Source of the DNA: a virus
Taxonomy: Duplodnaviria; Caudoviricetes
Direction: 5' to 3' (one strand)
Virus record (IMG/VR): IMGVR_UViG_3300025018_000001
DNA length: 64,000 nucleotides
Shown: in pieces, positions 21,483 through 52,920 of the stretch
Position numbering within the stretch: the stretch's first letter is position 1
Layout: every line of letters begins with the position of its first letter
Position numbers and translations under genes: made by a program
Notes under the pieces: model-generated
What the model was told of the DNA's origin: nothing
Database searches by the model: none
Seen by the model: only the letters and a program-made list of their open reading frames with translations

Positions 21483-21857
21483 TTATATAATAGGTGTGGG
21501 TACTACGCTTTTGGCCACTATATGGTTATAGTCAGAGTTATCTGACAAACTTACAATAAAACAAGTACCACTAGTAGTAATAGGAAGTGTAAAAACACCA
21601 CTTTGATTATTTGATATACATTGCCCCACTAACCTAAATGATTCACTATCATAGGCGTATATAATAGCTTCTTTAGGCGTACCTTCTAAAGTTACGTCAC
21701 CGTAAAAATAGTGAGTATTTAAAGTTATTTTAACCGGTGTATTAAATTTGTGCAGTATTGACACAGTATAGTCTGCAATATATATTGCATTAGTACCTAC
21801 AAGGGGTGTACTCTCAAGTACACCTATACTATAATCTGCTATCCTAATTTCAGTCAT
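21483..21857 (-). CDS. Small virion protein, paralog of the C-terminal domain of the 923-aa protein
   Basis: G.V...G.P....IYAYD..S..LVG..IS....G.F.LP aligns by eye with GYTT...TRVLVYDQNSGDLLG..ITD..G.Y.LEVP. Confidence 0.65.
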   Translation of the reverse strand: MTEIRIADYSIGVLESTPLVGTNAIYIADYTVSILHKFNTPVKITLNTHYFYGDVTLEGTPKEAIIYAYDSESFRLVGQCISNNQSGVFTLPITTSGTCFIVSLSDNSDYNHIVAKSVVPTPII

Positions 21858-21859
21858 AG

Positions 21860-23509
21860 TTACCCAGAAATAGTTGTAAAACCGAACTCATTTGCCGTTA
21901 TGAATGTGTCTTTCCAGTCTTCTAAAGAGTCTGGTGTTACATCCTGGATAAAACTTAGCATACTGTATTTAGTTGTAGGTAGTATTGAACCACTGTTAGT
22001 TGTATTACTACCACTAACCATAGTAGATGTCAAGTATAAGTCAACGCCCATATCTTTTTTTGCTATTATGTCACTACTTAGTGCCAGTATATTAGTTATA
22101 CCTGAAGGCACTGATAACATATAAGTATCTGTACTACCTAGACTACTAGAGTAAATATATTTAGAGCCAGCCTCTTCAAGTAGTTGCCATTCAATGTATA
22201 ACTTAGGTGAGTTAACGTGGTAAGAATCATTATTGGCTTCGTAAGCAGTATAACCTACCCTTATATAAGAATAGTTGGTGTCTACATAATGTAGGTCTAT
22301 TACAGCCAAAATACTATTATTGTTTTGTTGCCAATCAGGTAAATCAACTAGTTCTTGTAGTGATGCTTTTATATCTCTATTTGCTATATTGCCCTGCTGA
22401 GGTATTTTTGTTTTATTATAAGTAAACTTTCTACTTAACAGGTCAGCACTAGAGGTAATTTGCGTAACAGGTGTACCAGACTTTTCAAAAAAAATTAGCT
22501 GCTCATTTATATCATCCTCACTAATTATCTCAGTAGGGTTTACTAGTAAGTAAGCATTAGTAATTTTGGCATTTTTAGGTATATTAATATTTGAGAACCT
22601 GAACCAGTAGTAACAACTTCTAGTGTTTGTGTCCATATATATTGAAGCTACACTAGGAACCATGACCGATGTATTATTGAATACCCAGTCCGCACCAGAA
22701 CCATTTCTTACGTAACTACCATCATCTGCACCACTGTATTCATAATAGGTACTATTATAAGTTTGGGTGTTAATAGGGTATACTGTATTAGTAATAATAC
22801 TAGCATTACTAGTACCAGAGTAAGTTGCTTCAGGAAGGAATTGTTGTGAACTTCCACCAGTTAATACGGGTAAAGTAGAAACGGTACAGTTACCTAAAAA
22901 TGTATTATTCTTTGTACCTAAAGTGTTTAAAATATACAAATCTTCTATGTATGCAAAGTCATCAGAAGATAAGGAGCTTACATTTTTACCTATTTTAATA
23001 TTATTGACTAGGTGTGGTGTAGTAGTTATGGTGTTTAAAGAGGTTAAACTTAGTATAGCTACCTCATTTATATGAATATCCAATGTGCCCTGTGTATCAC
23101 TAAACTTAATTTTAATCTCTATATAGGCCCATTTATTTAATATGAAGCCTTGGTTAAATCCGTAGTTATTGTATATATCATCAGTATACCAATATATACC
23201 TGAGGCCATAATAACTATTCTACTTTGTATGTCATTATTATAACAAAAATATATAGTAAACTGGTCAGTTACATCTTTTACACGCACTAATGCAAAACCA
23301 ATTACAAGTTCATCGTAGGCATCATCCAGATTTTGTTGTATAAAATCATCCTCTGGTTCAGAGTAGGAACATTCCAAGGCTAATACATTACCTCCTCTTC
23401 GGCCAAAAGATCCCTCTTTCACATACATACTACAATTAGCAGTGCGCTCTTGCCATTTAAGTGGTAAGTGTAAGTAATTTTTAAAACTATCAAAAAATAA
23501 AAGAGACAT
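21860..23509 (-). CDS. Virion structural protein with lectin-like domains
   Basis: MSLLFFDSF start, W.YIEIKIK...G.LDIHINE ConA-like pattern, T/S/N-rich; lies in the tail block. Confidence 0.6.
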   Translation of the reverse strand: MSLLFFDSFKNYLHLPLKWQERTANCSMYVKEGSFGRRGGNVLALECSYSEPEDDFIQQNLDDAYDELVIGFALVRVKDVTDQFTIYFCYNNDIQSRIVIMASGIYWYTDDIYNNYGFNQGFILNKWAYIEIKIKFSDTQGTLDIHINEVAILSLTSLNTITTTPHLVNNIKIGKNVSSLSSDDFAYIEDLYILNTLGTKNNTFLGNCTVSTLPVLTGGSSQQFLPEATYSGTSNASIITNTVYPINTQTYNSTYYEYSGADDGSYVRNGSGADWVFNNTSVMVPSVASIYMDTNTRSCYYWFRFSNINIPKNAKITNAYLLVNPTEIISEDDINEQLIFFEKSGTPVTQITSSADLLSRKFTYNKTKIPQQGNIANRDIKASLQELVDLPDWQQNNNSILAVIDLHYVDTNYSYIRVGYTAYEANNDSYHVNSPKLYIEWQLLEEAGSKYIYSSSLGSTDTYMLSVPSGITNILALSSDIIAKKDMGVDLYLTSTMVSGSNTTNSGSILPTTKYSMLSFIQDVTPDSLEDWKDTFITANEFGFTTISG

Positions 23510-23512
23510 AAA

Positions 23513-25681
23513 TTATTCCTTCCAAAAATCTTCTGCTTGAATATGTGTCCAGTTCATATTATTATATGAACCTGGTGATACATAAGTAGGGTCATCGAAT
23601 TTAAAGTGTATATTAGTAGCTGTAGGTGCTTCATAAGCCTTACCTACTATAAGCGCAGTTAGATTATTAGTATCCTTATACAATTTAGGTGTAATATACG
23701 CATCCAAAAGCTTAAAATTATTTAATATTCCTGTTATTGTAGCTTTACAGGAAAGTGACCAATGATTAATCCTTTTAACTTTTATATTAGCTTGTAGATC
23801 AGTTGAAGGGAAGGTGGTGGCAATTATAGATACCTCTAAATCTCTATGTCTACTAGTAGCTACCCTATCAATTAAGTCATTAAGTGCTTGGTCAAACGTA
23901 TCATAATTTTTAAGATTAAACACAAATAGTTTCTTGACTTTAATTCTTGAGTTGAGTTTATTAGGATCATTAGAGAAACCTAGCACCTGTACTTTCCAAG
24001 TACGTTCTCTATTAACTTTGTATACTTTATTTTCATTGGGCACATAAAAGAAATGATAGTCCTCATCAGAATTTGTAAAAAACATCATTTCTACAAACCT
24101 TCTCCAACGCTCACCAAAACGATCTAAATTTATAACTACCTCTAGAGTTTTAGGGTTGACCCAATTCGGTACAGTAGTAAAATTAGCTAAAGGTTTAGCA
24201 GTTATCTGAGCACTTATATCACGAGAGTATAATATACCAGTAATAGTAGCTCTTAATATATTAGTAGACCGGTTACCTAGGAGCATAAGGGTATCTAATA
24301 CCTTATGACTACCTTTTTTAGGCGTGCTATGTATACCAAAAGTTACGAAAGGAGGTGTTGCATCATATACATTACTTGTAATACTTGTGTAGTTAGCTTG
24401 TACGTAGTCAGCTGCATTAATGTAAGCAGCAAGGTCGATAACGTTGTCAGCAGCGCCGCCATACCACCCTATGATAAAAGCACTCAAATCAAGTCTCTTT
24501 ATGGTGTATAGATATGCAGGTAAATCAACAAAGCTGGATTTTAGACAGTTGTAATTAACAACAGCCCTTAAATCCTTATGTTCAAATAAAGATATTGATA
24601 TAATTCTCTTTATATTAATAGTTTTTGGCACTATCTCAGCTAATAAGTCTAGATACTTACCTGTAGCTACTATGTAAGCTAGAAAAGAAGCTGAGCCTAT
24701 GGATGTTATATACGCAGCTATATCTCTTGTAGAAAAACCTTGTATATTAGCGGGTAAATCAAAAAACATATCCTGTGCCTTCATACCATATACATAAGCT
24801 GGAAGGTCTCTAGGACGTACTGCACGTATACTTGAAGGCAAGTCATATGGTTGATAACCGACAATAGTTATAGCGTTTAAATCTGCCTTTGCATAACCAT
24901 GTAAAGTGGCTTGTAAGTCTACTGGCGCAACACAGGCTAAATACGCGGATAAATTTTTAGATACTCTAAAGTAACCAGAGAAAATAGTAGCTTGTAAATC
25001 TGCCGTTGAAAATGCACCAATCATTGCAGCTAAATCACTTATATGCCAACTAGTTATATAAGAATTTAAATTTTTATTACTTTTAATTGTAACCTTACCA
25101 AAAGTAGCTGCCAAATCTAGATTACCTTTGAATAACGTACCTGATATGCTCGCTGTAATATCTCTTGTTTCAATTATGTTAAAGAATGCGTGTAAGTCTA
25201 CAGCTGGAATAGTCTGTACTACAGATAATATATCCGCATAACTATGTCGTAGAGCTTTGATTCCTGCGGGTAAATCAAAAAATATATCGGTATCACCAAT
25301 AATGTCCGCGTATAAATCTGTATAGCTACTATACCATAGTTTACCTGTGGTTATAAATGCACCTAAGTCTCTAATACCTCCAAAAAGACAAGGTAACTCT
25401 AATACTTGTACACCTGTATCGCTATAACCAACAACAACTTGTCTGCAGCTTTTGACATATGTGTAAGTAGAATCTTGAAACAATGGCCAAACTTCTAAAG
25501 AAGCCTCTAAGTCTGCTGTACCATGTTCATAAAACTGCATGATTTCAATATAAGCCTGTAAATCACTAGTACTATACGCGGCGGCTAAGAAATCAATATT
25601 TACAAAATCAGGAGGTGTGTATCCCTCCTCAGTAAAATCAAATAGTACGTTTTTCCCTTTGGGAGGGCGATAACTAACCAT
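23513..25681 (-). CDS. Repeat protein with ~25-30 DLxAxI repeats, probable virion fibre
   Basis: Repeats such as DLQAYI, DLEASL, DLPAGI, DLAAMI, DLQATI, DLPAYV, DLSAFI; related YxPPxGxNxxFxF motifs at both termini. Confidence 0.7.
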   Translation of the reverse strand: MVSYRPPKGKNVLFDFTEEGYTPPDFVNIDFLAAAYSTSDLQAYIEIMQFYEHGTADLEASLEVWPLFQDSTYTYVKSCRQVVVGYSDTGVQVLELPCLFGGIRDLGAFITTGKLWYSSYTDLYADIIGDTDIFFDLPAGIKALRHSYADILSVVQTIPAVDLHAFFNIIETRDITASISGTLFKGNLDLAATFGKVTIKSNKNLNSYITSWHISDLAAMIGAFSTADLQATIFSGYFRVSKNLSAYLACVAPVDLQATLHGYAKADLNAITIVGYQPYDLPSSIRAVRPRDLPAYVYGMKAQDMFFDLPANIQGFSTRDIAAYITSIGSASFLAYIVATGKYLDLLAEIVPKTINIKRIISISLFEHKDLRAVVNYNCLKSSFVDLPAYLYTIKRLDLSAFIIGWYGGAADNVIDLAAYINAADYVQANYTSITSNVYDATPPFVTFGIHSTPKKGSHKVLDTLMLLGNRSTNILRATITGILYSRDISAQITAKPLANFTTVPNWVNPKTLEVVINLDRFGERWRRFVEMMFFTNSDEDYHFFYVPNENKVYKVNRERTWKVQVLGFSNDPNKLNSRIKVKKLFVFNLKNYDTFDQALNDLIDRVATSRHRDLEVSIIATTFPSTDLQANIKVKRINHWSLSCKATITGILNNFKLLDAYITPKLYKDTNNLTALIVGKAYEAPTATNIHFKFDDPTYVSPGSYNNMNWTHIQAEDFWKE

Positions 25682-25785: not shown

Positions 25786-28700
25786 CTAGTCAGTTTCTGC
25801 TATATCCCACCATACTTTTATTCTTGTATCCAGTTGGGTTATATTACCCGCTGGTATATTAGATCGTATAAAAAATGGTTTACTTTTTTGTGGTTGAATA
25901 TCTGTAATCTGTATAGCAGGGGCCATATAAATACCAACAACAGTTGGTGTAGAAGTAGCATCAAAATTCCATAAGGTTACCCTTGCTTGAGTATATTTAC
26001 TTTTAGTTAAAAAATAACCGTCTTTATCCACCTCCTTCCATGGTAATAAAGTACTGTTTGTTGCCCAAAGACTCTCTTCAGGTCTAGGTATTAATTTAGG
26101 GAGTGTTATATCACTCTGTTGGAATTCTATATCAAACGTAAATAATCTCGGTGTATATGTTTCCATATACGCACTTGTTGTAAAATAGTCTGTATAAAAC
26201 TTAGTCCAAACAATGGCTTTAGTTGCTAAAGAAACATAACGCATACGCTTTAAAAGTGTAGAATATACAACTACACCGAATTTGCCACCACTTAACTTAT
26301 CATCACTAGCAAAATTTTTTATATTCATAGTTAAATTACCATATTTATCATAATGACTAACTTCCTGGGAAACACCAAAACTTAAGGTGTAAAAACCTCC
26401 AACTGTGTCTGAGGATATTACTTTTATGGATGATGTTATAGGTATCATAACTATTAACTCGCCAGAACTACTATAATTTTTTATGGCTTTAGTGTTATCT
26501 AGCTCGGCATGGTCTACAACCCAACACCCACCATCTTCGTCAGCGCACACCGCTAGGGGTTCTAATATATTTACCACAGTTTCGGTTTCTGCTAAATTAT
26601 TTAGATGTACCAATGCCTTTGTTACATTACTTATATACCAAACACTGTTAGTATTAAAATCTGTTGCTAACCCACAAAGGCCGTCCACGATAACTTCAGA
26701 TATAAGTATACAGGCACTATTAAAATGCTTTAGAAGTTTGTTTACAGCATCGTAGGACCAGAAGCCACCAGAAACATCAAAGTCACAGAAGTCTGTAGTA
26801 CCAAAATAAGCTGTATTCGTTGCAAAAGCTTTACTTACAACCAATTCACCACCAAAATTAAATATAAAAACATTAGAATTGGCAGATTGAGCTATATGCG
26901 CGGATATAGATAGTTGGTAGCCTGTGCGCCTGGAAATTGCCGAGCCATACGTATATACCGTTGATGTGTTTGAAATGGTCAGGGGTATAAAAGAAGTAGC
27001 TGCAGTATTATTATTATACTCTACTCTAAAATATGTTGAGTATGAATTTGCTCTAGCAAGCCAGAAAACATGATCTACCGGTAATGGTGACATATCACTA
27101 CTTCTAACTTCTATAATACCATCCTGTATATCTTTATACTTACTGACATTAGTAGTGCCAATGTTAGATAATACAGGTATTCTCAAATAACTTGCTTTAT
27201 TAGCGTCAGGCAGTGCGAATATAGGAGTAGTATAGTTACCTGTAATGTGTGTTAAATTTGCTATACTATTATTTAGTGTTTGTGGTAAGTTATACCCAAA
27301 AACAGCGTGTATATCCGTAATACCTGTGAGTATTAGTACAGATTCATCACCATGTGCGTCTAATGGTTCTAGCACTACCATTTTGTTAACTATACCAGTT
27401 TTTGTAGGTATATTAACAGGTAGTGTATCTAATTCATCGGTCGATAAGTTGTATCTATATATTTTACCGTTATACTGTGCAGACTGGAAATATAAATTAT
27501 CATTATAGAAACAAAAAGCCATATCCATATTTTGCGCCATGATTCTATTACCGAAGTTAAAAAAAGAGCTATACCAAGTATCAGTTAATACATCATACAT
27601 TTCAATATAAAAATTATTGTTTTGGATACTTTCAGCGTGTAGAACATATATACGATCTCGTATATCATCATAAACTAAGTGATTAACATTAGCTCCTAAA
27701 CTTGAGAGGAAGAAGTTATTACTAACTGGTGTTAATGCTGCTGTAGCTTCATTTAGTTTATATAACTGTCTAGCAGCATCACCTTGATAAACACCATGGC
27801 ATTTTATCCAAATGTTACCTTTAAAATCACCTACCATAAAGTAGTAATAGGTAGAAGTGAACGTGATAGTAAATGTTTTAAATACCGATAAATTTGCTAA
27901 ACTTCCTGTCATGCTATGTTTTAAAATAGTTCTAGTCGCGCCGGACTCGGAGATAACACCTAAAAAATACACGGCAGTATCAGAGCAACCCATGGAAAAT
28001 GTGTCTGTATCCCATAAAGCACTCACAAGGGCGCCTCTAAACGTCCAAGTATTTAACTGTACATCATAACACCAAAGGTTAATAGGAGATCCTTTAGAAG
28101 TAATACCTGGCCAGAAAGCGACATATAACTTTTTATGAACTTTATCATAAGCGGTACATCTTACAACACCAAAAGGTGACTTAGGGAATGTACTATCAAC
28201 TACTGGGAGAATACCAATATAAGTCTCACTTAAATGTTCATATACTGTAGGTTTAGATAAAACCAGCACTGCTCCATCGGATGTATTAGAGACTTTGGTA
28301 TTATTATGTGTTCCTCTAGACCAACTATTTTTTATAATGTCACCCTCAGAGAGGTTATAAAATGGGCCGTTACTTTCTGCAGCTATATCAACATAAAAAT
28401 CCCCTTGTTGCCCTGTATAATCTACACATACATAAGCGTTGGCTGGCTTATCACCTGAGGTATCGTTATAGATATCAATAGCTTGAACTTCACCAACAAC
28501 ACCTTCTGGAGTGTCCTCTATAAAGGTATCCGTAAGACTACCATCTGCGCCAAAAGCTACAATGTTGTCATTATTCAGAACCTGTAATTCATGTAGGAGC
28601 ATATTAGTACCACTTACAACACATCGAATATATCTTGGTGCACTAGGATTAGGTACTGTACCGACATAAGAAACTGCTGATACTGTTTTTGAACATACAC

Positions 28701-28974
28701 TAAAAACATCAGAAGCAGCACTTTTAGAATAAAATGTTACATTGGCCAGCTTAGTTAGATCATTCGTATATAATAAAATACTATCTACCTTTAATTTATA
28801 ACCTAAGTCAATATCAAGGTATAATACCTCTGTGTCTACTAGTTGTACACCTAGTGTGTATACGTTATTATCTATAAGTGAGTCTAATTCTGGAATAGTT
28901 AGTGCACGGTTACCTGTACCGCTAGTAGTATTAGAGGTAAATGAACTATTCCTTATCATATTATATTTTGACAT
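25786..28974 (-). CDS. Large virion protein with discoidin-like N-terminus and beta-propeller (Kelch/NHL-like) regions
   Basis: Repeated W.YD...TW, MYD..TD.W, FD..GG.W, D..GG.W blades. Start placed at ATG 28974 after AGGTGA. Confidence 0.6.
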   Translation of the reverse strand: MSKYNMIRNSSFTSNTTSGTGNRALTIPELDSLIDNNVYTLGVQLVDTEVLYLDIDLGYKLKVDSILLYTNDLTKLANVTFYSKSAASDVFSVCSKTVSAVSYVGTVPNPSAPRYIRCVVSGTNMLLHELQVLNNDNIVAFGADGSLTDTFIEDTPEGVVGEVQAIDIYNDTSGDKPANAYVCVDYTGQQGDFYVDIAAESNGPFYNLSEGDIIKNSWSRGTHNNTKVSNTSDGAVLVLSKPTVYEHLSETYIGILPVVDSTFPKSPFGVVRCTAYDKVHKKLYVAFWPGITSKGSPINLWCYDVQLNTWTFRGALVSALWDTDTFSMGCSDTAVYFLGVISESGATRTILKHSMTGSLANLSVFKTFTITFTSTYYYFMVGDFKGNIWIKCHGVYQGDAARQLYKLNEATAALTPVSNNFFLSSLGANVNHLVYDDIRDRIYVLHAESIQNNNFYIEMYDVLTDTWYSSFFNFGNRIMAQNMDMAFCFYNDNLYFQSAQYNGKIYRYNLSTDELDTLPVNIPTKTGIVNKMVVLEPLDAHGDESVLILTGITDIHAVFGYNLPQTLNNSIANLTHITGNYTTPIFALPDANKASYLRIPVLSNIGTTNVSKYKDIQDGIIEVRSSDMSPLPVDHVFWLARANSYSTYFRVEYNNNTAATSFIPLTISNTSTVYTYGSAISRRTGYQLSISAHIAQSANSNVFIFNFGGELVVSKAFATNTAYFGTTDFCDFDVSGGFWSYDAVNKLLKHFNSACILISEVIVDGLCGLATDFNTNSVWYISNVTKALVHLNNLAETETVVNILEPLAVCADEDGGCWVVDHAELDNTKAIKNYSSSGELIVMIPITSSIKVISSDTVGGFYTLSFGVSQEVSHYDKYGNLTMNIKNFASDDKLSGGKFGVVVYSTLLKRMRYVSLATKAIVWTKFYTDYFTTSAYMETYTPRLFTFDIEFQQSDITLPKLIPRPEESLWATNSTLLPWKEVDKDGYFLTKSKYTQARVTLWNFDATSTPTVVGIYMAPAIQITDIQPQKSKPFFIRSNIPAGNITQLDTRIKVWWDIAETD

Positions 28975-28982
28975 GTAATCAC

Positions 28983-31900
28983 CTAAACAGTTGTTAACCA
29001 ATCTACTACTATCTGAGCGTTACTGCCCGTAGATCGAAGTTTTTTATTCTTTATTGTTCTGACATATACAATTTCAATAGCCTGACTAGGTACTTGTTCA
29101 AATACCAATGGAAGACTTTCTGAACCTGGGCCATAAAAATTTATATTATCTTTAGACAATTCTATAAAATTTTCTGGTGTATACAAATATTCACCCTCAA
29201 TATCCTGTTTGTTTACTAAGAAGTCTTCCTTACAGTAATTATACACTTTTATATTTTCAAAGACAAAGGCACTTTGATCATTGTACACTTGGGCCGTTTG
29301 TGTTATCCCTCCTCCAAGTTTGAAGAAAGAGATCTTAGTATCAGAGACATCCCAAGTAGAGGTACTACTCAAAGTAACGACACCATTTATAAATAATTTC
29401 ATAGTGTGATTCCCCGAAATATCCTTACCATCATTACTCCATACAAGGCCAATGTGTACTATTTTATTTCTACCTATAAAAGTATGAGCTGGTAGGTCCT
29501 CTGTGCTAAATAAACTCTGCTTCCTTATATTGCCAGCGAAAACCTCAAACCAATTTCCTGGTTTTATTCTAAGTGATACAATATCGTTAGTATTACTACT
29601 TAAAGTAAATAACGTAGCTGCATGTATTTCACCAAAAGCATCTCTACCCAGTGTGTCAACTCCCATTTTAACCCAAAATTCAATTGATCCTCTATCTAAA
29701 TTAATGTTAGATAAAGGCATCATTAAATAGTCATTATAAGTTAAGCAGAGGCCATTAGCATATTTGACAGGGGTATCGAAAACATTTCTTAATATAGCAA
29801 AATTATCTACAAACATTACTAACTTCTTTCCAGTACCTCTATATTGAAAGTACAATGTAGTTATATTTCTTTTATTGCCTTGCAAATTAAGAATAGTCTC
29901 TAAGAATTCAGTAGAACCACTAACTTTTGTAGGGTAGACACCACTGTAATTGTAAAAATTTAACTTAACATTATTCCAGCCAGTAATAAGGGGAATATCT
30001 GATACATTCCAAGTGTAATAAAAGTCATTAGAATTACTATCTACAGAACCTAATAGAACTTTACCATAAGTGGTATCAAAATTATCTATATTATCAATAT
30101 ATAGATAGAAATGGAAAGCATCGGAAATAGACCATAGTAAATCTTGGCCAAAATGGTCTGCCTCAGATAGTTGTAGGGTGTCAACATCTGAAGATGCTGG
30201 ATAATCTACACGTAGGGAGCGTCTTCCTATCTTAGTATTAATACTGTCATTCGACAAAGTGGAGATATCAGAGAGCCACCACCACCAATATTCTGTTGGC
30301 ACATATTTACCGTCGCCGTATACTTCTATTTTATCTAAATAATCAGGACTACTCATATCATCTAGGAAGTTGTACGCGTAGTTTGTTGCTGTATCCCTTA
30401 TAACAGATACCCATCTAGTTAAGTCATATAAACGGTAAATCTTTATGTTTCTTACACCCCAAGTATTTTCTGTATCAATATTTTGTCTTGTATATACATT
30501 AAAATAACCATCGTACTCTGTAAAAAATTCATGGCTTTGTTTTTGCCATAAGGTACCATAAACATTAGCAAAAACTATAATTGTTTCACTACCTTCTAAT
30601 TCTATACTTATTTCTTCCACATTTTGTGGGTAATACGCCTCCCAGTCAATATAATGATGTCCTTGCGCTAAAAACAAAGAGGTTACTAATAAATATTCCA
30701 CAGAGTACTTTAAGTCGCCAGAATTAAAGTCACTCTCATACTCTGTTGTGTAGTCCTGCCCTCTTGTGAATGGTGCTCTACTTGGATCAGAAGTTACGCT
30801 ATCAGAGTAGCTTATAAATTCACTAGAGTTATCCCATAAAGTATTGTTGACATGCTCAAGCAATTTAGAGCCTTGTTGAAAAGAGTTATATAGTTTAACA
30901 TCTACCACATTAAATTTATCTCTAAGGTCCACACATACGATGGGGAAGTCCTCGCTACTTATATAAGGCACATTAGTTTTTGCAAATATTTCTATTTCCC
31001 GTAGAAAGCCTAACTTAGCATTTAAGTAAGTAGAGTTATATATATCAGTGGGGACATCTATAGTTTCAAAAGAAGTAATTTCGAGTAATGCCCTCCTTGC
31101 CTTGACATAGTTAAACTCGTGTGTTTGAGTAGCAGCATTAGTTATATTAGCTGCCGTATAAACTAAGGTCCATACCCTAGAGCTACCTGAAATAGTGTTA
31201 TCAAGACTTAATTTATATGACTTATTATACCCAAGAGGTATATTAGGGGAATAGCCATTATGTATAGTAAAAGACCCTATGTAGTACTCATCATCAAATT
31301 CAATATAAAGTTTTGGTGAGGTGCCTTCTTCATAGGCCCAGCAGTAATCTACTCCATAGTTTGAGGAATAACCATCTACTGCCTTACTGGGTAAATTTTC
31401 ACCGTAAAAAGTTGTACCCGATACTGTTGTGTTTAAAGCCACATTTTTTAAAGGTGTGTACTGTGTTAGTGTAGAGTTAAGTGGTAACCACTTGTTATTA
31501 AAACCACCATCTTTACAAAATACAGTAGTTATATCCGTATAAACACCCAGTTTTTCAATTGATTTGATAATATTATCTGAACAATCAACTTGAATACCTA
31601 GCCATCTACAGTCCATATAATCAGAGTCAAATACTGCATTATCTATTGAACCACTACTATTGGAGTATTGTGTTTTAAGTTGTAATGACACATCAAATAG
31701 GTTACCAATACCATAGTGTCTCACTATAGATAAACTATGACGACTAATTAAATCAATAACAAACGCTATAAATAAGTCTTCCCTTGTGGCCTCTATAATT
31801 GAGTTTAAAGAGTAATTATTATTATTTACCCCAGATAGTATATTTAACGTTAACTCATTACCTGTGGATATAAAGAATATTTTGTCAATAGGTACTACAT

Positions 31901-34900
31901 CATAAAGCTCCAAACCTAACCACGTTCCTGGCGCCAACATAGGTCTATAATTAAAACTTATATTATATACCCTAACGGTCCACAATGTTGAAGAACCTCT
32001 GAAGTAAAATGAGGTTAAACTATTTGAAGAGGTTAAAGTAAAAGTGGTTATATAAATATGGTTACCTAGATATAAAGATATAGTGTTTCCTGCTTTTCTT
32101 AAACATATTTTGTTTTTTTGTAGCATATTAAAGTAACACCCTAAAGTATTATTTGTATATAATATGGTGGAACCCTCTACGATGTTCAGTACATGTACTG
32201 TACCATCACATGAAGCTATACCTGCTCCGGCAACACAAGTCCATTCTAAATAAAATACTATTTCTGCACCACTATAAAACTCAAATTTCGCGTATGATAA
32301 AGGGTAAATATATGAGGGGTGGTTCGGGTCAAAATAGTAGTCAAATAAAAACTCAAAGTTATCTGAGTTATTAAATCTATATGTACTCAGATTAATATCA
32401 CCAGTCTTACCGTTTATTAAAAGGTATTCATTATTTACAACAAAAGCTTCTGGGGACTTAGTACCAAAAACGGAAAATTCATCCCAGGTGCCTTCTGCAA
32501 AAGAATCTTTGAATGTATAATAATTTGGTATGTTAGTACCATTAGAGACTATGTAATTAAGAGAAGTATTTGGTATAGTATCAGGTAATAAAATTTTTCT
32601 TATATCTACACGTTCTCCAAGATATGAAACTATGATATCACTCAGTACACTAACTCTATCTGCTGATAATATTTGTATACGCCAGTACTTACTTGATACA
32701 GGCACGATATCTGCAGAAAATTTATATCTATGGAGGTAAGCCTCATTTGAGAAATCTACTGGTATACCTGAGCTTAAGGTACCATAAGTAAACCAATCAA
32801 AGGTATTGTATGAATAATAAGCTGTTTTACCCTCAATAGCGTTAGCTAAACCATAACTAAAACAACTTGTAGCACATTGTCCTCTACTGTAAGTAATAGG
32901 GTAGTCATCGCTTTTATACAAGAAGCATGTAGGGCCTAACTCAGGATCTTTAAGAGTATCAAAAGAATTTAAAGTATTCCAAAAAATAATATTTTTACTG
33001 CTGATTAAATCTCTAGGTATATCTACGGTAAGATCAAAAGACTTGTTGTATATATTAGTGATTACAACTTCCTTGCTATCACTTATTATACCATTTTTTG
33101 CTTCGTCTATTAACACTAAGGAGTCTTCTGTGTAAGCTTGTTCTGTAGTTGAAACAGCTATCTCACGCATATTAAAAGCCGTCTGTGATTCGAAAGACAC
33201 CCTAAAGTATCTAGGTGTACCTCCTACAAATGCGGCTGTAGTGGTTTCATCTACAGTTTTAAACCCAGTGGTACGCCATTTATCCTTATAATCCGAAAAA
33301 TGTAATATAGTATTGTCAACCATAGATACATCATTAGGTACTCTAGAGTAAACTTCCATCTCGGTTACTTTAGTACTATTATGTCTATCACAATATATTC
33401 TAAACCCTTTACATGGTATTGGTTCAAACTCATGAGCCAATATACTCCAGTCAACAAAGTAAGTAGATATATGATCTTGGCATATTTCAGGATTATCATA
33501 GTCTTGACTATATAAGTTAGTTGTTGCAGGATTCTTAAATAAATACCTATCTATGTTATCATTATCCCCCTTGGTGTACTTAACACCATTTAAATATATA
33601 AAGTTGTATTCAGGTACTAAATTATATGCCACATTATCTGCGTCACCTGAGTAGTGATAAGACCCACCATACGTAGATAAAGCAATATTTCTAAAATTAT
33701 TTTCTTCTTTAAAATATATTATACTTTTATATACATCGAAAAGGTGCTCAGCTGGGAATAGTAATGTAAAAGCTATTGGATCAGTAGTGTAATTCATAGA
33801 ACCACTAGTAGGTTTTTTTATACCACAGTATTCTGTTAGGCCATTACACACTGTACTATATGGCCATTCGAAATCTCCATTAACATAAAAATAAGCGTGC
33901 TCACCAAAAGTAGCTATACCATTATCCTGAGTGTATACATCACCCTCTTTTCCGTTATCAGCAGTGATAATTAAATCATCTAAACATTCCTTGCCATAGT
34001 ATATATTATTATGTGTATCATACCAAGTACCACCATAAGCTGTAAGATATACACCAGCATGATTATGAGTTTCATTAAATAGATCTACATTCCATGTAAC
34101 ATCTAGACAAGATGCTAAATTAAATTCGTAGTAACCCTCTAGTTCTTCACCTGATACTATAAACTCGGAAACATTTAACCGGTAGCCCAAGTCAATATCC
34201 AATATAGTATTATTTTGTTTAAGGTCACCTCTAGCATATATTGCAAAACCTCCGACACCATAAGAATAGGATGTTGCATTTTCCACGATAGTAGTAACTT
34301 CACCATTTACTTGTATAAAAGTAGCGTCTGGTAAACCAGTAGCTGTCTGCCCTACATAAAGGTTTGCATTATATATACCCAATATGTCACCTTTGTTTAC
34401 TAACACGTCGTAGTCCACTCTAGAAACTATAGGACGCATAGTATACAATGTAGCATCCTCAGTAGTAGGTAAAGGTATTGAGTAAACTACTCTAAATGTA
34501 CCATCATTACGTGGACGTAAAATTTTTAAGGCTGCTCCTGGGTAGAGCAAACCATACACCCAAAAGTGTTTTAATTTACCGTTGTTATCTATACGTTTTG
34601 ATAAATCAATAATAGTTTTGCCTGTATTATCGAAAGAAGTATAACCTGTAACATCATCTAATTCAGATATTAATTTGGATGTTCCTATTTCATTAAAGTC
34701 ACGTCTACCTCCTTCAACAGAATACTGTGACGGGTTGTGTATGTAAGCTATATCATTATCTCCATCCACTAGCGCGTTTATTTCAAATGTCTGTAGAAGC
34801 CTTGTACTAGCATAATCAAACCCAGTGGCTGGATCTGTACCTGATACACATGTGTATATAGGTTCCATACGGTCATTGAAGAATCCCAATTCTTCAGCTG

Positions 34901-43442: not shown

Positions 43443-44057
43443 TTACTGTGGTGCATTTTCCAGAGAGAATGTAAAAGTCTTAGCAGGTAAAATATTACCA
43501 GAAAAATCTTTAACCCCTGAGATCGTCACGCTATATGTCTTACCATACATAAAGTACTTACTTTGTGGTTTAACTTCTGCTAGCATATTGTATTGCCCCG
43601 ATCCTTCTACAGAAATAAGCGCTTCTAAACTAGACTCCTTGTAAGTAGTAGTTTTAAAAAATGTAGAAAAATAAGCTGTATTTGCATTTAAAACATCGTT
43701 AGTAGCTGTTACTGATATAGGTATTTCTTTATTAAGAGGCCATTTAACTACTTTATCCCAAGTAAGCTCATACCCATATTGTAGAATAAAAACAGTACTT
43801 ATGTATTCATCATTACTATTACTTCCAAAAACCTCTAATAACATAGTACCACTAGGTACGGTAGAGTATGTTAAAGTGTACCCATCACTTATTGGTGTGA
43901 TTATATAAGGTACGGTAGCACCATTATCTGTCATATACGTACCTGACAAAGTAACCATATGAGTATCATCTGTTATGTCCACACTGAAATCCACTAAAGA
44001 TGTACAATATACTGTAGAATCTTCAGGTATGGAAAAATTTGTTATATAAAGTGCCAT
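43443..44057 (-). CDS. Ig-like (Big_5/SbsA-type) virion protein
   Basis: C-terminal Y.K.YSVTISGVKD.SGN.L....F.F pattern. Confidence 0.6.
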   Translation of the reverse strand: MALYITNFSIPEDSTVYCTSLVDFSVDITDDTHMVTLSGTYMTDNGATVPYIITPISDGYTLTYSTVPSGTMLLEVFGSNSNDEYISTVFILQYGYELTWDKVVKWPLNKEIPISVTATNDVLNANTAYFSTFFKTTTYKESSLEALISVEGSGQYNMLAEVKPQSKYFMYGKTYSVTISGVKDFSGNILPAKTFTFSLENAPQ

Positions 44058-46704: not shown

Positions 46705-46705
46705 A

Positions 46706-49270
46706 TTAATCCACCTGAGTAACTGTAGCTTCTATTTCAACTACCCTAAGTGCTGTGCCTGAAGTATAGCCAGTATCAGCTCTTCCCGTATTATAGAAAA
46801 TATCAGTATAAACTGTTTTAGAAGTTACAAAACCTATTGGGTCATCATCTGTAAATGAGACGGGCCTGTTTACAACACCTTGACCGTATTGGTCAAAAAC
46901 TATTGATGTAATTACAGCTGTATTTCTTCCCGTAGCTGGTAATATATGTGTAGAAGCGTCTACTGATATAAAATCAATAAAAGAACGTATAGGAGATATT
47001 TGATAATTATATGTTGCCCATGTATAATCCGTACCATAATAGGATGCTTCCATCTGCAGTCTATACAAATTATCACCATCAATATCAATATCATATACTG
47101 TTATTATAGTAGATTGATTATTACGTACATTATCCATAGCCATAGTCCCATAATAGATACTAGAATCAACGGGGTACCTTAAATAACCACTATAAAAAGC
47201 TAAGTCATTAAAATAGGCACCAGATATGGTAGTCAGAGAAGAGGTCATACCTAAAGATAATAAGCATTCTTGTGTATAAATGGTTATAGGATTAAAGTTA
47301 AACCATGCACTATCAACGCCTGATATAGACGTCAAATAGCTTAATTGTAGGCTATTGGGGGTTTTTATAGCTTTAAACTTATAAGATAATCCATCTATAC
47401 CTGAGGCCACTGTATTATATTGAGTTAATGAGCCATTTATAGTGACACCTAATACTGTACTACCATTTAAAGCACTAAAATAATCACTGTCTTTATCATA
47501 AAAATTTGATATTTCGTAATAAGTTAAAGCCCTACCATACAGCATAAAGTTATCTAACGCAAAGTTTCTTCCAGGGTACTGTGGGCTGGTACCAAAATAT
47601 AGAGCGGCTAAAGGGTTACTGGTTGTGGTACCATTAAGAACTAAAGATCCTTTTAAAACCTTGTCGTAATAAACATAAAGTGTGTTATCTTTTTTTATAA
47701 ATGCTATATGTACCCAACTATTTATAGGGGTTGTTACAGACACGATCTGTGTAGCATTTACAGTAGTAGTTACACCAAACTTTAACACATTAACGTCATT
47801 ACTGAACCAAATATAAGGAGATCTGAATGATCCAGCACTTTTCTGTATTATTGTGTGTTGTGCTGTATCAAAACCTCCTATTAGTTTGATCCAAAAAACC
47901 ATAGAAAAGTCGGCACCGTCTTTACCAACTTCTAATAGAGGGGTACTTGTGATATTTACAGAAGTGGTGGCTATAAAACTAGCAGCACCTGATGCTGTTG
48001 TATCCATACCATCAATATATGTTGGGGCTATAACAGTATTATATGGAAAATTATTGCCTGAGTAATCCGTGAATGACCCATTGAAAGGATAGTATAGTAC
48101 AAGGTTATTTGTACTTACATTACTATTAAAATCTGTGGAATACCTCAAACCTATCTCTACATTAGTTTTACTTGTTTGAAAGTCTAACCCCATGTAGTGA
48201 TTATACTGCTTTAAGTCTACACCAGAAAAAGTAGTCACTCCCCACAGCGTACCAGAGACCTGGACCTCAAAGTCATTTAGTAATAAGTAGGTTGATTCAA
48301 CTCTATCATGGCCGTTACCTGTAGTAGAGAAGTATAAAGAATTATTTAATATCTTGGGATCACCTAAGGGCACAGTCCACTTAGTTTCATCAGGTAGACT
48401 GTTATCAACAGCTATAAATGAGTCAGAGCCTCTAACATCCGCATTATACCTATATAAATCACGTAAGTCACGTAATTTTAAATTAGTTCCTTTAACATAG
48501 GCTAATGTAAATACATCTGGAAAATCTTGTAGTACACCCTGTAGTCTATAAAATTTAGATGCAGATATGTTTTTGTATTCTACATCTGTGAACCTGCCCA
48601 TTTCCATACCGGTATAGGGGTTTAGTGTTATTAACGCTCCTGTATTATCTGATAGATAACTAGAATAGTTATTAAACACATATATTGATGAAATTATATT
48701 TACAGGATCTCCTGCTAAATAATTATTAACCAGAGGTGCTTTTAAATATATATTCTGTCCTTCAACCCCACTAACTGTAACTAACTCTCTTTGGTCAAAT
48801 TTGTTAAAACCTAGACCTATAATAGTTCCAGATACTGTAGCGAATTCAACATACTCATCCATAGAAATAACAAGATCACCATCATAGGCATCTACTGTTA
48901 ATTTAGTATTGTAGTATTCTACAGATATAGTATTAATGTCATATTTTAGGTAGCCTGATATATCAGTCAATGGGAACTGATTTACCATTACACAAGTGAA
49001 ATTAATTATATTCCAGCATCGTATAACGTAGCCAGTGCCTGAGGTGAATTTCTGTAGTGACCAAAAATTGTAGCCATCATACTGTAGACAAAGTATATCC
49101 CCTACAGTGTATATAGTAAAACTACTAGGTAAATCCACAGGGTATTGGAATGTTGTGGCCCCGGCGGAAGATTTCTGAGAAAGTATTCTATTAGTATAGT
49201 CTAAGAGATAGAAATAACCGTCCTGTACAACTAGGTGTCGTTGATGAAAACGTATATTTTCATAAGTCAT
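46706..49270 (-). CDS. Virion protein, paralog family member 2 (core + lectin module with nested LamG + Big_1-like Ig)
   Basis: LVLYYPFNG..TDYSGN, FSMVFWIK, WVHIAF, LDNFMLY.RAL LamG motifs; C-terminal VFDQYGQ..NRPVSF. Confidence 0.75.
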   Translation of the reverse strand: MTYENIRFHQRHLVVQDGYFYLLDYTNRILSQKSSAGATTFQYPVDLPSSFTIYTVGDILCLQYDGYNFWSLQKFTSGTGYVIRCWNIINFTCVMVNQFPLTDISGYLKYDINTISVEYYNTKLTVDAYDGDLVISMDEYVEFATVSGTIIGLGFNKFDQRELVTVSGVEGQNIYLKAPLVNNYLAGDPVNIISSIYVFNNYSSYLSDNTGALITLNPYTGMEMGRFTDVEYKNISASKFYRLQGVLQDFPDVFTLAYVKGTNLKLRDLRDLYRYNADVRGSDSFIAVDNSLPDETKWTVPLGDPKILNNSLYFSTTGNGHDRVESTYLLLNDFEVQVSGTLWGVTTFSGVDLKQYNHYMGLDFQTSKTNVEIGLRYSTDFNSNVSTNNLVLYYPFNGSFTDYSGNNFPYNTVIAPTYIDGMDTTASGAASFIATTSVNITSTPLLEVGKDGADFSMVFWIKLIGGFDTAQHTIIQKSAGSFRSPYIWFSNDVNVLKFGVTTTVNATQIVSVTTPINSWVHIAFIKKDNTLYVYYDKVLKGSLVLNGTTTSNPLAALYFGTSPQYPGRNFALDNFMLYGRALTYYEISNFYDKDSDYFSALNGSTVLGVTINGSLTQYNTVASGIDGLSYKFKAIKTPNSLQLSYLTSISGVDSAWFNFNPITIYTQECLLSLGMTSSLTTISGAYFNDLAFYSGYLRYPVDSSIYYGTMAMDNVRNNQSTIITVYDIDIDGDNLYRLQMEASYYGTDYTWATYNYQISPIRSFIDFISVDASTHILPATGRNTAVITSIVFDQYGQGVVNRPVSFTDDDPIGFVTSKTVYTDIFYNTGRADTGYTSGTALRVVEIEATVTQVD

Positions 49271-49278
49271 ACTATCTC

Positions 49279-51126
49279 CTAGTTAGTCTGTTGTACCGTT
49301 GCAGTTACTAATACATCTTGTGCTAGAGTTCCAGCCTTATAAATAGTTTGAACAAACCCATCAGCATCAGTATTTAATTCTGTACCTCCTGTAATCATAC
49401 CATCACCACCCTCAGAGAAGGTAACCCTTCTATTTTGTATAGGCTGTAAAAACTGATCTTTAACCCAAGCATTTATATTAGTTGTACTCAAACCATTTGC
49501 TGCTATGATTGCCGGAGAAGCAGATAAAGAAATAGACGTAACAAAAGACTCTAAAGGAGATAAAAAATAATCAAAAGAGGAAGATCCCTGAAGTCTGTAT
49601 AAATTATTTCTATCCACAGACATATCTTGTAAAACAACTGCCACATTACTAGTTATATTATCCATAACCATAGAACCATAGTAGGGTAATGATATTGCAT
49701 TTGTTAAATTCATTACTGTTCCCTCTATAAATGTTAAATTATCAAAAGTATTTATAACAGTTACATCGGTGGCATTGAAAGAAGATAGAACTAACTGAGC
49801 ATCTGTGTCAAACATTTCAATTACTCCAAGATATCGCCATGGTGTAAATACAGCTGCAGTGGTTGTTCTGTAATAAAAGTGTACATCTGATGCTACCCTT
49901 TTTATTCTAAGACCGTATGTATCAATATCAGTTAACGGATCATCTTCAATACCAGAAACAGTAGTTACTACACCGTCAGTTGCCTTTCTGTAGGTTACTG
50001 AAAAATTTTGGTGTAGTGCTGTACCAAATTCGGTACTATAGCCTCTAGAAACTTTACAAAATCTATCTTGTTCATTTGGAAAAATTAGTTTAAAAGAGTT
50101 TTCCATATAACCAGTACCACTATAAGAAGTATTATAGGCTACTAATTGTCCGTCAATTGTAACATCAAAATCCTCAGGTAGATAGTATTTTGTTTGTATA
50201 GTTTCTTCACTAGGTGATGGTGCAGGATTAAGGTACAGCTCACCACTTTGAATAGTAGGTGTACCACTTACTGTTGTCCATTTTGCTGCGTCTAATGTAT
50301 CAAAAGTGTCATCCATAATATCAGCATCATATATATTTCTTTTATACGCCGAAGTATTTACAAATAGTGTATTTGTCCCTTTAGCGTATAATAACATGTC
50401 TTTACTACCTAAATTCTGGAATGAGCTGATTTTATAAAATGTACAAGCAGTTATAGCTTTATAAGCACCGCCTACGAACTTGGTAATAAGTGCCCCTGTC
50501 GTGGAGTCAAACTTATACAAGGCACCAGTTGTGGTAATAATACCATCATTATTATTGAAGAGCCATATATTTTTATGGAAGTTTATTTCATTACCTACAG
50601 CGTAACCATAACTAAGAGGAGTGGCTAAAACTACACCACCAAATACGGTACCAACAACTGCTATGTCTTCTTCCTCACCATTAGTATTAGGGCCTATATG
50701 TAATGTAGCATTAGTAATTACCTCAGGATTATTTGAGTATTCATCTATATATATTATGGTATCTCCAGGACTAGTTATATCTGTTAAATGGGTATGATAA
50801 TGTTCAATAGTAAAGGCGTCTGCACTATAAGTCATACTACCTGAAGAATTTAAAGTAATTGTCTGTTGTAATTTAGCTAGATAATTATGAATACGCCATC
50901 TTTTAATATATAGTGTTGTTGTAGCAGCTTCTAAAGACCAAAAGTTTACACCATCATACTCCAAAGACTTTATTGTATTATCCAATAGTATATCACAGGG
51001 GTAAGAAAACGCAGTATTACCATCGTCTGTCTTTTGTAGAAGAGCATCCTGGTCTTCATCAAACGTATAAAAATAACCATCACTTACAGTGAAATTAGAC
51101 TTTCTTATGTTAATATTTGTGGCCAT
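49279..51126 (-). CDS. Virion protein, paralog family member 1 (core + lectin module + Big_1-like Ig)
   Basis: DGYFY, YDG.NFWSL, YRLQ and VKDQF.QPI.NRRVTF shared with the 854-aa protein. Confidence 0.75.
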   Translation of the reverse strand: MATNINIRKSNFTVSDGYFYTFDEDQDALLQKTDDGNTAFSYPCDILLDNTIKSLEYDGVNFWSLEAATTTLYIKRWRIHNYLAKLQQTITLNSSGSMTYSADAFTIEHYHTHLTDITSPGDTIIYIDEYSNNPEVITNATLHIGPNTNGEEEDIAVVGTVFGGVVLATPLSYGYAVGNEINFHKNIWLFNNNDGIITTTGALYKFDSTTGALITKFVGGAYKAITACTFYKISSFQNLGSKDMLLYAKGTNTLFVNTSAYKRNIYDADIMDDTFDTLDAAKWTTVSGTPTIQSGELYLNPAPSPSEETIQTKYYLPEDFDVTIDGQLVAYNTSYSGTGYMENSFKLIFPNEQDRFCKVSRGYSTEFGTALHQNFSVTYRKATDGVVTTVSGIEDDPLTDIDTYGLRIKRVASDVHFYYRTTTAAVFTPWRYLGVIEMFDTDAQLVLSSFNATDVTVINTFDNLTFIEGTVMNLTNAISLPYYGSMVMDNITSNVAVVLQDMSVDRNNLYRLQGSSSFDYFLSPLESFVTSISLSASPAIIAANGLSTTNINAWVKDQFLQPIQNRRVTFSEGGDGMITGGTELNTDADGFVQTIYKAGTLAQDVLVTATVQQTN

Positions 51127-51131
51127 ATAAA

Positions 51132-51629
51132 TTACCTATATAAGATTGTGGGAACCCATTGAAAATTATATTCATAAGGATCTCCTTTTATAATTATCTC
51201 GGATGTTATATCAAAATCAACTTCTCCGTTATTCAACGTCACTACCACACCAGACAAATCAATACCTGAGGATGGGTGCTTCTCTTCTATTGCAAAACGT
51301 ACATGTGATGTTATAGGTATATTAGTGCCCTCTGGAGAAAAACTCTTTAAAGTTGGTGGGTATCTATCAACATCAAAGTCTCTCCAGTCTATTAGCTGAC
51401 ACATATCAGCTATAGCTTTATTTATTTCTTCTTCAATAAAATTCTCTGTTATTTTGTGAACATACCTGGGGGCTATCTTTTCCCCAGAAGAATCTAAAGA
51501 TGTGGTTCCTATTTCTAGCAACCACACCGACTCTCCTTCCTCATCCTTTAAAGCGTACTTACGTAAGTTTAGATTGAATTTTACAGCCTTTCTAGGATTA
51601 AGAGTATGTTTTACAATTATATCAGACAT
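51132..51629 (-). CDS. Ig-like virion protein
   Basis: D.YPP.L....P....IP....V.F.I.....GID.S resembles the C-terminal repeats of the 869-aa protein. Confidence 0.55.
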   Translation of the reverse strand: MSDIIVKHTLNPRKAVKFNLNLRKYALKDEEGESVWLLEIGTTSLDSSGEKIAPRYVHKITENFIEEEINKAIADMCQLIDWRDFDVDRYPPTLKSFSPEGTNIPITSHVRFAIEEKHPSSGIDLSGVVVTLNNGEVDFDITSEIIIKGDPYEYNFQWVPTILYR

Positions 51630-52594
51630 TAAGCAAAGTCAATTTGGTTTATCATAATTTTAGCCATATATCTAAGTAACTCGTCTATGTTACTATAGTA
51701 GCTATCAGGTGAATTATCTGGGTCTGCCTTTTGTAGTATTTGTATATAAGCACCATCAGCTACTGTATATGAGTTATTTATACCAACAAAACCATTTGTA
51801 GCTGTTGTAGCCACAGTTATATTAGTAGTAGCTACGTTTAAAGCAGTAAAATAATCACTATTGACACCATCAGTTATAATCAATGCATCTCCAACATTAA
51901 CACCTGTGGTCATGTTAATAACTAAAGTATCAGTACCTGCAGTATAGTCTGATAAAATTGGTGCTTCTAATATAGTTATATCAGATAAATCCTCACTTAC
52001 TACTGGCTGGTCAAATCCTAACATGGCTGCACAGTCATTAGCAGGATTATTTCCCACTCTAACTGATGATCTAGAAGGACCCGTAAAGTAGTTGGATATA
52101 GTACCTGAAGAAATGTGAAATTTATTATCAGAAAATTTTACTGAACAGTTTTTATAAGCTAAACTAAAGCCCGCATCTACACCAGATACTGTAGTACTGC
52201 GTATTTTAGTCTGTAGGTCTAACGCTATTTCTTCACCACGTTTAGCTACACCATTATTATGATCTAGTGTTATATTGTAGTAACCATTAGAAGTACCGCT
52301 AACAGTAGCATCCATTTTTACCCCTAAAACACAGTGGGTAGAATCCAAAGCAAACTTACCATTGGTTCCTTTAAAGCCAGAACTTTTTACCCACCCTATC
52401 TTGCCACCGGCTATGTATAAACTTTGGATAGCAGTTCTGTTTACTGTATCTGAATAAGCAGAAGTTGACGCAGATATTAAATATTTTTCATCCCCCTCAG
52501 CACCAGAAGGTACTAAAATGGTAGTGTCCAATGTAACCTTTTTTGTTACACCAGGAAAATTTTCTAAGTCTTGTACATCTAGGCTAATGGACAT
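51629..52594 (-). CDS. Virion structural protein with shared ...SGT...SSV...LGF module
   Basis: Residues 89-194 align by eye with the 517- and 2269-aa proteins. Confidence 0.65.
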   Translation of the reverse strand: MSISLDVQDLENFPGVTKKVTLDTTILVPSGAEGDEKYLISASTSAYSDTVNRTAIQSLYIAGGKIGWVKSSGFKGTNGKFALDSTHCVLGVKMDATVSGTSNGYYNITLDHNNGVAKRGEEIALDLQTKIRSTTVSGVDAGFSLAYKNCSVKFSDNKFHISSGTISNYFTGPSRSSVRVGNNPANDCAAMLGFDQPVVSEDLSDITILEAPILSDYTAGTDTLVINMTTGVNVGDALIITDGVNSDYFTALNVATTNITVATTATNGFVGINNSYTVADGAYIQILQKADPDNSPDSYYSNIDELLRYMAKIMINQIDFA

Positions 52595-52632
52595 GTATAT
52601 ATCCTCCGTTATTAAATTTAAATTAAATTATA

Positions 52633-52920
52633 CTAAACATATAAAAAAGCTTGCCCTGTATCTAAAAGATGAGGACACCCACTATAAGTACATTGGTAAC
52701 CCCAAGAACCTCCAGCACTGGATACATTCATGTAGTAATGTTTATTATCATCTCCAATATGTGATACCTTGTTGGGTAACGTACCGGATGTAGTAATATC
52801 TAATAAATGTCTAGTACGAATGTCTGTTGCGTCTATATCATAAGGGCAAGGTGCATAACACTTACCTACGTGTCCATTTACTAAGTATTCAGGAAAATTT
52901 CCGCACGTATAATCTACCAT
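52633..52920 (-). CDS. Small Cys/His-rich hypothetical protein
   Basis: 95 aa; C...C..PC and QC...GCPH; GGAG-like RBS. Confidence 0.6.
   Translation of the reverse strand: MVDYTCGNFPEYLVNGHVGKCYAPCPYDIDATDIRTRHLLDITTSGTLPNKVSHIGDDNKHYYMNVSSAGGSWGYQCTYSGCPHLLDTGQAFLYV

Follow-up and report, generated by a model that had tools for sequence, protein, structure and literature searches.

The 64,000-nucleotide stretch analysed here (IMG/VR record IMGVR_UViG_3300025018_000001; "the window" below) is part of the genome, about 264 kb long, of an uncultured jumbo phage, and all of its genes lie on the minus strand, to which every window coordinate of a gene or site below refers. Between positions 18700 and 52594 it carries a block of 15 mostly large proteins (11,164 amino acids [aa]) that are almost without family matches, and our subject is a short peptide word, Thr-Thr-x-Ser-Gly (TTxSG), that recurs in these proteins and that a sequence-only reading of the window had proposed to be a glycosylation sequon. 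The family matches in the block are limited to Big_1, LamG, and a NedA-like galactose-binding domain. A PHROGs search of 17 block proteins left 16 without a match and gave for the other a match of no known function, and 50,697 phage records searched by tblastn with the 517-aa protein yielded no match. We read the block as putative tail sheath and appendage genes because the AlphaFold2 model of the 321-aa protein (51629 to 52594; predicted local distance difference test score [pLDDT] of 83) has a sheath-like outer domain: residues 63 to 204 match the outer domains of myophage sheath proteins (7kh1_A6, Z 10.3, 109 aligned residues, root-mean-square deviation 2.5; 8env_A, Z 9.9). In the same kind of model comparison, residues 207 to 288 correspond to a small beta-barrel, as found in tailspike and tail-tube insertions. 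A Foldseek search of this model against PDB gave nothing at E <= 0.001, and its matches in BFVD were uninformative. No capsid protein was identified within the window.

We found nine copies of TTxSG in the appendage block, which reproduces the earlier count in full: three in the 854-aa protein (TTFSG, TTASG, and TTISG), two in the 615-aa protein (TTVSG twice), two in the 549-aa protein (TTNSG and a C-terminal TTISG followed directly by the stop codon), and one each in the 321-aa and 2269-aa proteins (both TTVSG). Recounting also gave the same seven copies of TVSG, four of TISG, and one each of TSISG, TSVSG, TSYSG, TVASG, TVPSG, and TPASG, and the remaining 9,330 aa of the window contain no TTxSG, in line with the claim that the word is absent from the replication and metabolic proteins. 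Per-protein composition predicts 0.56 copies of TTxSG in the 11,164 aa of the block, close to the rough figure of about 0.5 given before. Shuffling, which the sequence-only reading had asked for as a check, does not produce the observed number: none of 5000 whole-protein shuffles reached nine copies (the maximum was four), nor did any of 2000 shuffles within 10-, 20-, or 40-aa windows, and the mean expectation from the 10-aa windows is only 0.74. Among all words of the form abxcd, TTxSG is the top outlier in the block (Poisson P of 9e-9, compared to 2e-5 for the runner-up), and related words are also in excess, with 18 copies of TxSG where 5.9 are expected, 9 of VSGT and 7 of TVSG (0.42 expected for each), and 26 of SGT (5.9 expected). 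The codons at the sites are mixed, with ACT, ACA, ACC, and ACG used for Thr and five of the six Ser codons (TCT, TCA, TCG, AGT, and AGC) used for Ser. Since the codons vary, selection is on the peptide and not on the DNA, and the TTxSG-type word is selected at the protein level.

The sites lie in several proteins of the block. In the 321-aa protein, TVSG is found at residues 97 to 100 (52295 to 52306) and TTVSG at residues 134 to 138 (52181 to 52195); among 120 homologues D95 is invariant and T97, S99, and G100 are kept in 91%, 90%, and 96%, respectively, making the loop D95-A-T97-V-S99-G100-T nearly invariant. The model agrees with the earlier statement that both copies fall in loops, placing one after the strand at residues 89 to 94 and the other between helices 120 to 132 and 138 to 148. 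The 615-aa appendage protein (49279 to 51126), which has a C-terminal Big_1 domain, carries TTVSG at residues 284 to 288 (50263 to 50277) and 388 to 392 (49951 to 49965) and TSYSG at residue 333. Both of these TTVSG sites are retained in relatives A and B, which, with relative C, are syntenic IMG/VR contigs with protein identities to the window of about 80% (A), 60% (B), and 25 to 55% (C). The 854-aa appendage protein (46706 to 49270; LamG and Big_1 domains) has TVSG at residues 145 (48827 to 48838) and 165 (48767 to 48778), TTFSG at 346 (48221 to 48235), TTASG at 424 (47987 to 48001), TSISG at 647, and TTISG at 680 (47219 to 47233). In the 204-aa protein (43443 to 44057), TLSG at residue 36 (43941 to 43952) and TISG at residue 178 (43515 to 43526; context TISGVKDFSGN) are both kept in relatives A and B. 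The 2269-aa giant appendage protein (28983 to 35792) has TTVSG at residue 1455 (31416 to 31430), just ahead of its NedA-like galactose-binding domain, and TISG at residue 1533 (31185 to 31196), within that domain. The 1071-aa appendage protein (25786 to 29001) has TTSG at residue 25 (28918 to 28929). The 549-aa protein (21860 to 23509) carries TYSG at residue 229 (22814 to 22825), TTNSG at residue 503 (21989 to 22003), and TTISG as its final five residues (21863 to 21877), the last kept as TT[IV]SG-stop in relatives A and B. In the 124-aa protein (21483 to 21857), TTSG at residue 94 (21567 to 21578) is retained in relative A and reads TTISG in relative B. The 549-aa C-terminal TTISG is the sole terminal copy; the other 17 of the 18 TxSG sites are internal.

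For a profile of the word, we combined the sites of the window with those of its relatives, 268 distinct ones after de-duplication. Bias is seen only at positions -1 to +4, giving a six-residue consensus of [T/A/P/V]-T-[V/I/A/T]-S-G-[T/I/V/A], and the flanks of the 268 sites have background composition, with no hydrophobic periodicity or strand pattern. Among the orderings of T, S, and G, only T.SG (4.65-fold), SGT (4.66-fold), and TSG (2.2-fold) are enriched, and the others are near 1-fold. At its fourth position the word strictly favors Ser over Thr, Asn, and Asp; T.TG is enriched just 1.2-fold, so Thr is no substitute for Ser, and no other residue substitutes for Gly. Three other short words, DGY, [ST]G.T, and [ST]GS, reach no more than 1.8-fold here. 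The general O-glycosylation sequon of Bacteroidota is D-(S/T)-(A/I/L/V/M/T). An Asp of this kind is not enriched before the Ser among the 268 sites, where the residue is V, I, A, or T. The profile also bears on the possibility that the word is a by-product of composition, of DNA-level signals, or of hidden paralogy. T, S, and G are abundant in the block, and some of its proteins have Big_1 domains in common; set against this are the low expectation from the 10-aa-window shuffles, the varied codons, the unrelated flanks that leave 268 distinct contexts after de-duplication, and the permuted words at about 1-fold. A DNA-level motif is ruled out by the codons and a local compositional bias by the local-window shuffles, and we regard a by-product of any of these kinds as extremely improbable and effectively refuted.

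The same word is enriched in the relatives. TTxSG was found 11 times in relative A (0.51 expected), 3 times in relative B (0.52 expected), and 8 times in relative C (0.45 expected), and TxSG was found 24, 17, and 22 times, respectively, with about 5.5 expected in each. This enrichment is restricted to the same appendage block, and TTxSG also ranks first in unbiased word scans of relatives A and C. Searching IMG/VR with a 321-aa family profile retrieved 37 loci, of which 34 non-redundant ones were used (the near-duplicates L027, L030, and L038 were set aside). In the 10 kb downstream of the sheath-like gene, these 34 relatives contain 326 copies of TxSG compared to 70 expected (4.65-fold) and 69 copies of the six-residue word compared to 1.7 expected (about 40-fold). 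The 10 kb upstream code for other late proteins; there, the corresponding values are 58 compared to 50 and 2 compared to 1.1.

Individual sites are far less stable than their number. Only 1 of 47 aligned TxSG columns is common to all four genomes, a turnover that alignment error at 25 to 35% identity may have inflated, and clear gains of sites are seen in well-aligned proteins too, the 517-aa protein (51% identity) among them. Of the aligned columns, 14 are private to relative C, yet relative C holds 22 TxSG sites compared to 5.3 expected. Between the window and the moderately diverged relative B, the motif Ser is kept at a rate of 0.77 (background, 0.48) and the motif Thr at 0.69 (background, 0.49), and between the window and relative C conservation of the motif Ser and Thr equals background. 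The 16 homologues of the 854-aa protein have from zero to six TxSG sites each, with about 0.55 expected, and many of these are at private positions. Judging from these alignments, sites turn over between relatives while their density is held. In the 1829-aa protein (36191 to 41680), the N-terminal 200 or so residues of the window copy have no TxSG, and the orthologues in relatives A and B have four and two sites, respectively, within about 75 alignment columns (for example, VCTVSGVTTSGT); as aligned, gains or losses of the motif cluster in this region.

For comparison, we used the virion modules of phages T4 (late genes and fibers), T5, crAss001, and TJE1 (44.7k aa). In these four control phages together, TTxSG occurs once (1.5 expected) and TVSG once (1.2 expected), and TxSG occurs 31 times compared to 18.5 expected, a mild baseline of about 1.7-fold as opposed to the 5- to 40-fold enrichment in this clade. 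The comparison with virion proteins of other phages that the sequence-only reading had set as a test therefore reveals no shared enrichment. Its caveat, that strings of this type might be generic beta-turns of Ig-like or beta-sandwich folds, predicts an enrichment that we did not find in the unrelated virion beta-proteins of these controls. We conclude that the six-residue word is a real, clade-specific, and compact short linear motif, specific for Ser and Gly.

A structural origin peculiar to the clade has to be weighed separately. The word could be a structural habit without modification, with a strand ending in beta-branched T, V, or I, a turn or bulge made by Ser-Gly, and a further strand beginning with T, V, or I, reused in the beta-sandwich and sheath-like domains of the clade. 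T, V, and I favor strands and S-G favors turns, which fits this explanation; such preferences ought to hold everywhere, yet TTxSG and TVSG stay near 1-fold in the four control phages and the upstream late proteins of the same phages are near 1-fold as well. The baseline of TxSG, about 1.7-fold even in T4 and T5 virion proteins, is on its side. DSSP assignments on the predicted models give the sites different contexts (a loop after a strand, a helix-loop-helix, a loop before a strand, the inside of a strand, and the extreme C terminus), so that, as modeled, the sites do not appear to share structurally equivalent positions; it was equivalent positions that the earlier reading had named as counting against a sequon. 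In the model of the 854-aa protein (pLDDT 61.7 overall and about 65 to 85 at the sites), they fall in loops before strands, inside strands, and at strand ends. Most of the predicted contexts are strand-loop boundaries and some sites lie at recognizable domain edges, as a structural habit would have it, and a helix-loop-helix and a free C terminus are not what it would produce. The near-invariant D-A-T-V-S-G-T of the 321-aa family might be a structural loop, and Gly is kept over Ser where sites are lost; on the other hand, the flanks lack strand periodicity, Ser is strictly preferred over Thr, Asn, and Asp, and the density is upheld by independent gains. On balance, we consider a purely structural habit possible but rather unlikely.

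Candidate enzymes that could read the motif are encoded in the replication and nucleotide-metabolism arm of the window (296 to 18626), which comprises PolA, DnaX, two methyltransferase-like open reading frames (ORFs), a 373-aa glycosyltransferase (GT) of family GT4, Nudix, DHFR, and ThyA, followed by a 422-aa GT4 enzyme, a nuclease, RuvC, DnaJ, primase, DnaB, RecA, and the beta clamp. GT-422 (7924 to 9192) and GT-373 (4995 to 6116) match Pfam Glycos_transf_1 (PF00534) with 46.8 and 34.2 bits, respectively, at a cut-off of 26.4, and the best solved relative of both is B736L of chlorovirus NY-2A (3oy2). In the EX7E motif of GT-422, E290 and E298 are invariant in 51 homologues. Wherever a relative's contig extends to the expected position (24 of 24), it has a GT-422 orthologue with 50 to 80% identity, and the 13 contigs without a GT match all end before that position; on this distribution, GT-422 is a core gene of the clade. 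GT-373 has weaker second matches 2 to 4 kb from GT-422 in the relatives. A gene for a 168-aa class I S-adenosylmethionine-dependent methyltransferase (4499 to 5005; Pfam Methyltransf_11, E of 1.8e-9) overlaps the end of the GT-373 gene and has orthologues in relatives A and B. A complex prediction for GT-422 with the 321-aa protein scored 0.00, which speaks neither for nor against an interaction.

In four relatives (G016, G030, G036, and G037), the GT-422 orthologue is interrupted after residue 294 or so, just past EX7E. The interrupted ORFs are 822 to 869 aa long, and a homologous cluster member, P0167, has the intein splicing domain PF14890. Because an intein appears to sit right after EX7E in these relatives, GT-422 is likely to matter to the phage and to be under strong constraint. 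An intein within a glycosyltransferase is unusual. The RecA orthologue of relative C (L015, 10518 to 13946) is 1142 aa long with intein splicing domains and two LAGLIDADG endonuclease domains, and probably contains two inteins.

ThyA and DHFR are less constant than the GTs. The window ThyA (7002 to 7853) is an equivalog-level thymidylate synthase. In relative A, a thymidylate synthase of another subfamily, likewise at the equivalog level, takes its place (L011, 10266 to 11132; 28% identity), and in relative B neither ThyA nor DHFR (folA in the window, 6498 to 6992) has a match at this locus; the GT, Nudix, and methyltransferase genes stay where these flanked genes differ. Since ThyA belongs to the true thymidylate synthases, the window (the 64 kb searched of the genome of about 264 kb) reveals no route to hydroxymethyl bases by which DNA could become the acceptor. 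T4-type DNA glucosylation uses hydroxymethyl-pyrimidine synthesis together with a GT of the GT63 or GT72 type; the GTs in these 64 kb are of family GT4.

These observations bear on the possibility that the motif is read by something other than a GT, such as a chaperone of assembly, a docking partner, a host factor, or an enzyme that modifies Ser, for instance a kinase, with the GT4 enzymes serving DNA, the host envelope, or metabolites. The properties of a short linear motif hold whatever reads the word, the GT genes have those of ThyA, DHFR, Nudix, DnaX, and PolA as neighbors, and in some relatives one GT contains an intein, a frequent feature of replication genes. The closest cultured homologue of GT-422, from Tetrasphaera phage TJE1 (37% identity), lies within a sugar-nucleotide cassette: TJE1 (L054, 5388 to 10731) has a nucleotidyltransferase-kinase-epimerase-methyltransferase-GT cassette immediately upstream of the terminase gene terL. 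However, the window has no evident candidate for a kinase, protease, or chaperone, a cleavage site would make no sense at an extreme C terminus, and the hydroxymethylase that a DNA acceptor calls for is not among the genes of the 64 kb. We therefore judge a reader of another kind to be unlikely. One structural protein of TJE1 terminates in ...ATYSGFGV.

Two further features of the appendage block stand apart from the motif. The 165-aa gene (51132 to 51629) comes directly after the 321-aa gene, and together they may make up a minimal sheath-tube pair, with PHROGs recognizing no tail genes in this phage. The strongest three-letter gapped word of the block is DLxA (22 compared to 3.1 expected), and its excess is driven by the 722-aa repeat protein (23513 to 25681). 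The orthologue of this protein in relative B has 958 aa, which suggests repeat expansion.

A reader acting in trans best explains the properties of the motif. No candidates other than the phage's own GT4 enzymes are in view, which makes O-glycosylation the leading explanation. We tentatively favor, without great confidence, the view that the word is a short linear recognition motif displayed on sheath-like and fibre or appendage proteins and is read and O-glycosylated by a GT4 enzyme of the clade. The most likely reader would be one of the two core GT4 enzymes, which would put an O-linked sugar on the motif Ser; the adjacent small methyltransferase would then tailor the sugar, and the result would be a tail surface coated with glycans at sites that come and go in evolution without a change in their overall number. 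In this view the motif sites are presumably solvent exposed. B736L, the best solved relative, counts for this view as a GT4 enzyme of a virus that glycosylates its own capsid, though its own function is unknown. The more specific proposal, that T-T-[V/I]-S-G-[T/V/I] is a Ser-specific O-glycosylation sequon with a B736L-like GT4 reader in a widespread jumbo-phage clade and would give the first sequence-defined, evolvable glycan coat on a phage tail sheath and fibers, we put forward with slightly more reserve. What stands of the sequon-directed glycan coat first proposed is the compact Ser-Gly-specific word, its clade-wide density, and the intact core GT4 genes; the link from GT to motif is its conjectural part.

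Several points weigh against O-glycosylation by these enzymes. An action of the GTs, or of another enzyme, on the motif is only inferred, and no relative shown to lack the GTs was found among the 37 loci. Between 10 and 43 kb separate the GT genes, in the replication and nucleotide-metabolism arm, from the genes with motif sites. In the cultured phage TJE1, whose GT is 37% identical, the virion proteins contain no TTxSG and 6 TxSG (2.9 expected), within the range of the controls. Several sites are at apparent edge strands of known beta-sandwich domains, including WTTVSGT...SGELYL in the 615-aa protein, the TISGVKDFSGN of the 204-aa protein, and a site where the galactose-binding domain of the 2269-aa protein begins, and where sites are lost Gly outlasts Ser, as it would for a structural turn. 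The sites are not closer to insertions and deletions than expected (0.47 compared to 0.47), the motif is not depleted in non-virion proteins, and the pooled P values overstate independence because the relatives share ancestry.

To our knowledge, only a few actinobacteriophages are known to glycosylate their virions with enzymes of their own, and no sequon has been defined for this. The question of a sequon would become directly testable with a compact Ser-Gly word present clade-wide on tail-surface proteins. If O-glycosylation is correct, the word would offer a portable bacterial O-glycosylation tag, account for the core glycosyltransferases of many large aquatic phages, and be evidence for glycan shields that evolve on phage tails, with a turnover of attachment sites like that of the glycan shields of animal viruses. 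If the word is structural or otherwise read, it would still be an unusually clean lineage-specific short linear motif in phage structural proteins.

Among known glycosyltransferases, proteoglycan xylosyltransferase (family GT14) acts at Ser-Gly and OGT (family GT41) prefers [TS][PT][VT]-S/T. The acceptor proposed here is similar, with Ser before Gly and T, P, or V ahead of it, and would suit a GT-B enzyme that binds an extended peptide; the phage enzymes belong to GT4, and we take the likeness as no more than a lead. In chloroviruses, cytoplasmic enzymes encoded by the virus add glycans to the capsid protein at non-canonical sites; these glycans are N-linked to Asn, and for the GT4 protein B736L/A546L the function of B736L is given as unknown (PMC5408694). 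B736L is the best solved relative of both phage GT4 enzymes, but a remote one (E about 1e-9), and the acceptor proposed here is Ser, unlike the Asn of the chlorovirus glycans (PMC5408694). Among large phages, the "moraphage" lineage described in PMC12619734 resembles this clade in genome size (up to about 307 kb here), in DnaJ, and in its core GTs. That lineage has recognizable T4-like structural virus orthologous groups, whereas the phage studied here has none, and membership in it was not established.

The closest parallel is the O-glycosylation of mycobacteriophage virions by phage-encoded GTs, in which, as PMC12619734 summarizes it, glycans are at the C termini of capsid and tail-tube subunits (Freeman et al. 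2023, cited in PMC12619734). In that summary, these C-terminal glycans come with no description of a compact sequon; here the candidate sites, known from sequence alone, are a strict six-residue word, lie on sheath-like and fibre proteins, and are mostly internal, so that with 17 of 18 TxSG sites inside their proteins a C-terminal acceptor region of the mycobacteriophage type was not found in the block. As in the mycobacteriophages of that summary, the phage carries its own GTs, with two GT4 genes in the window, its virion proteins are the proposed targets, and a shielding role is possible.

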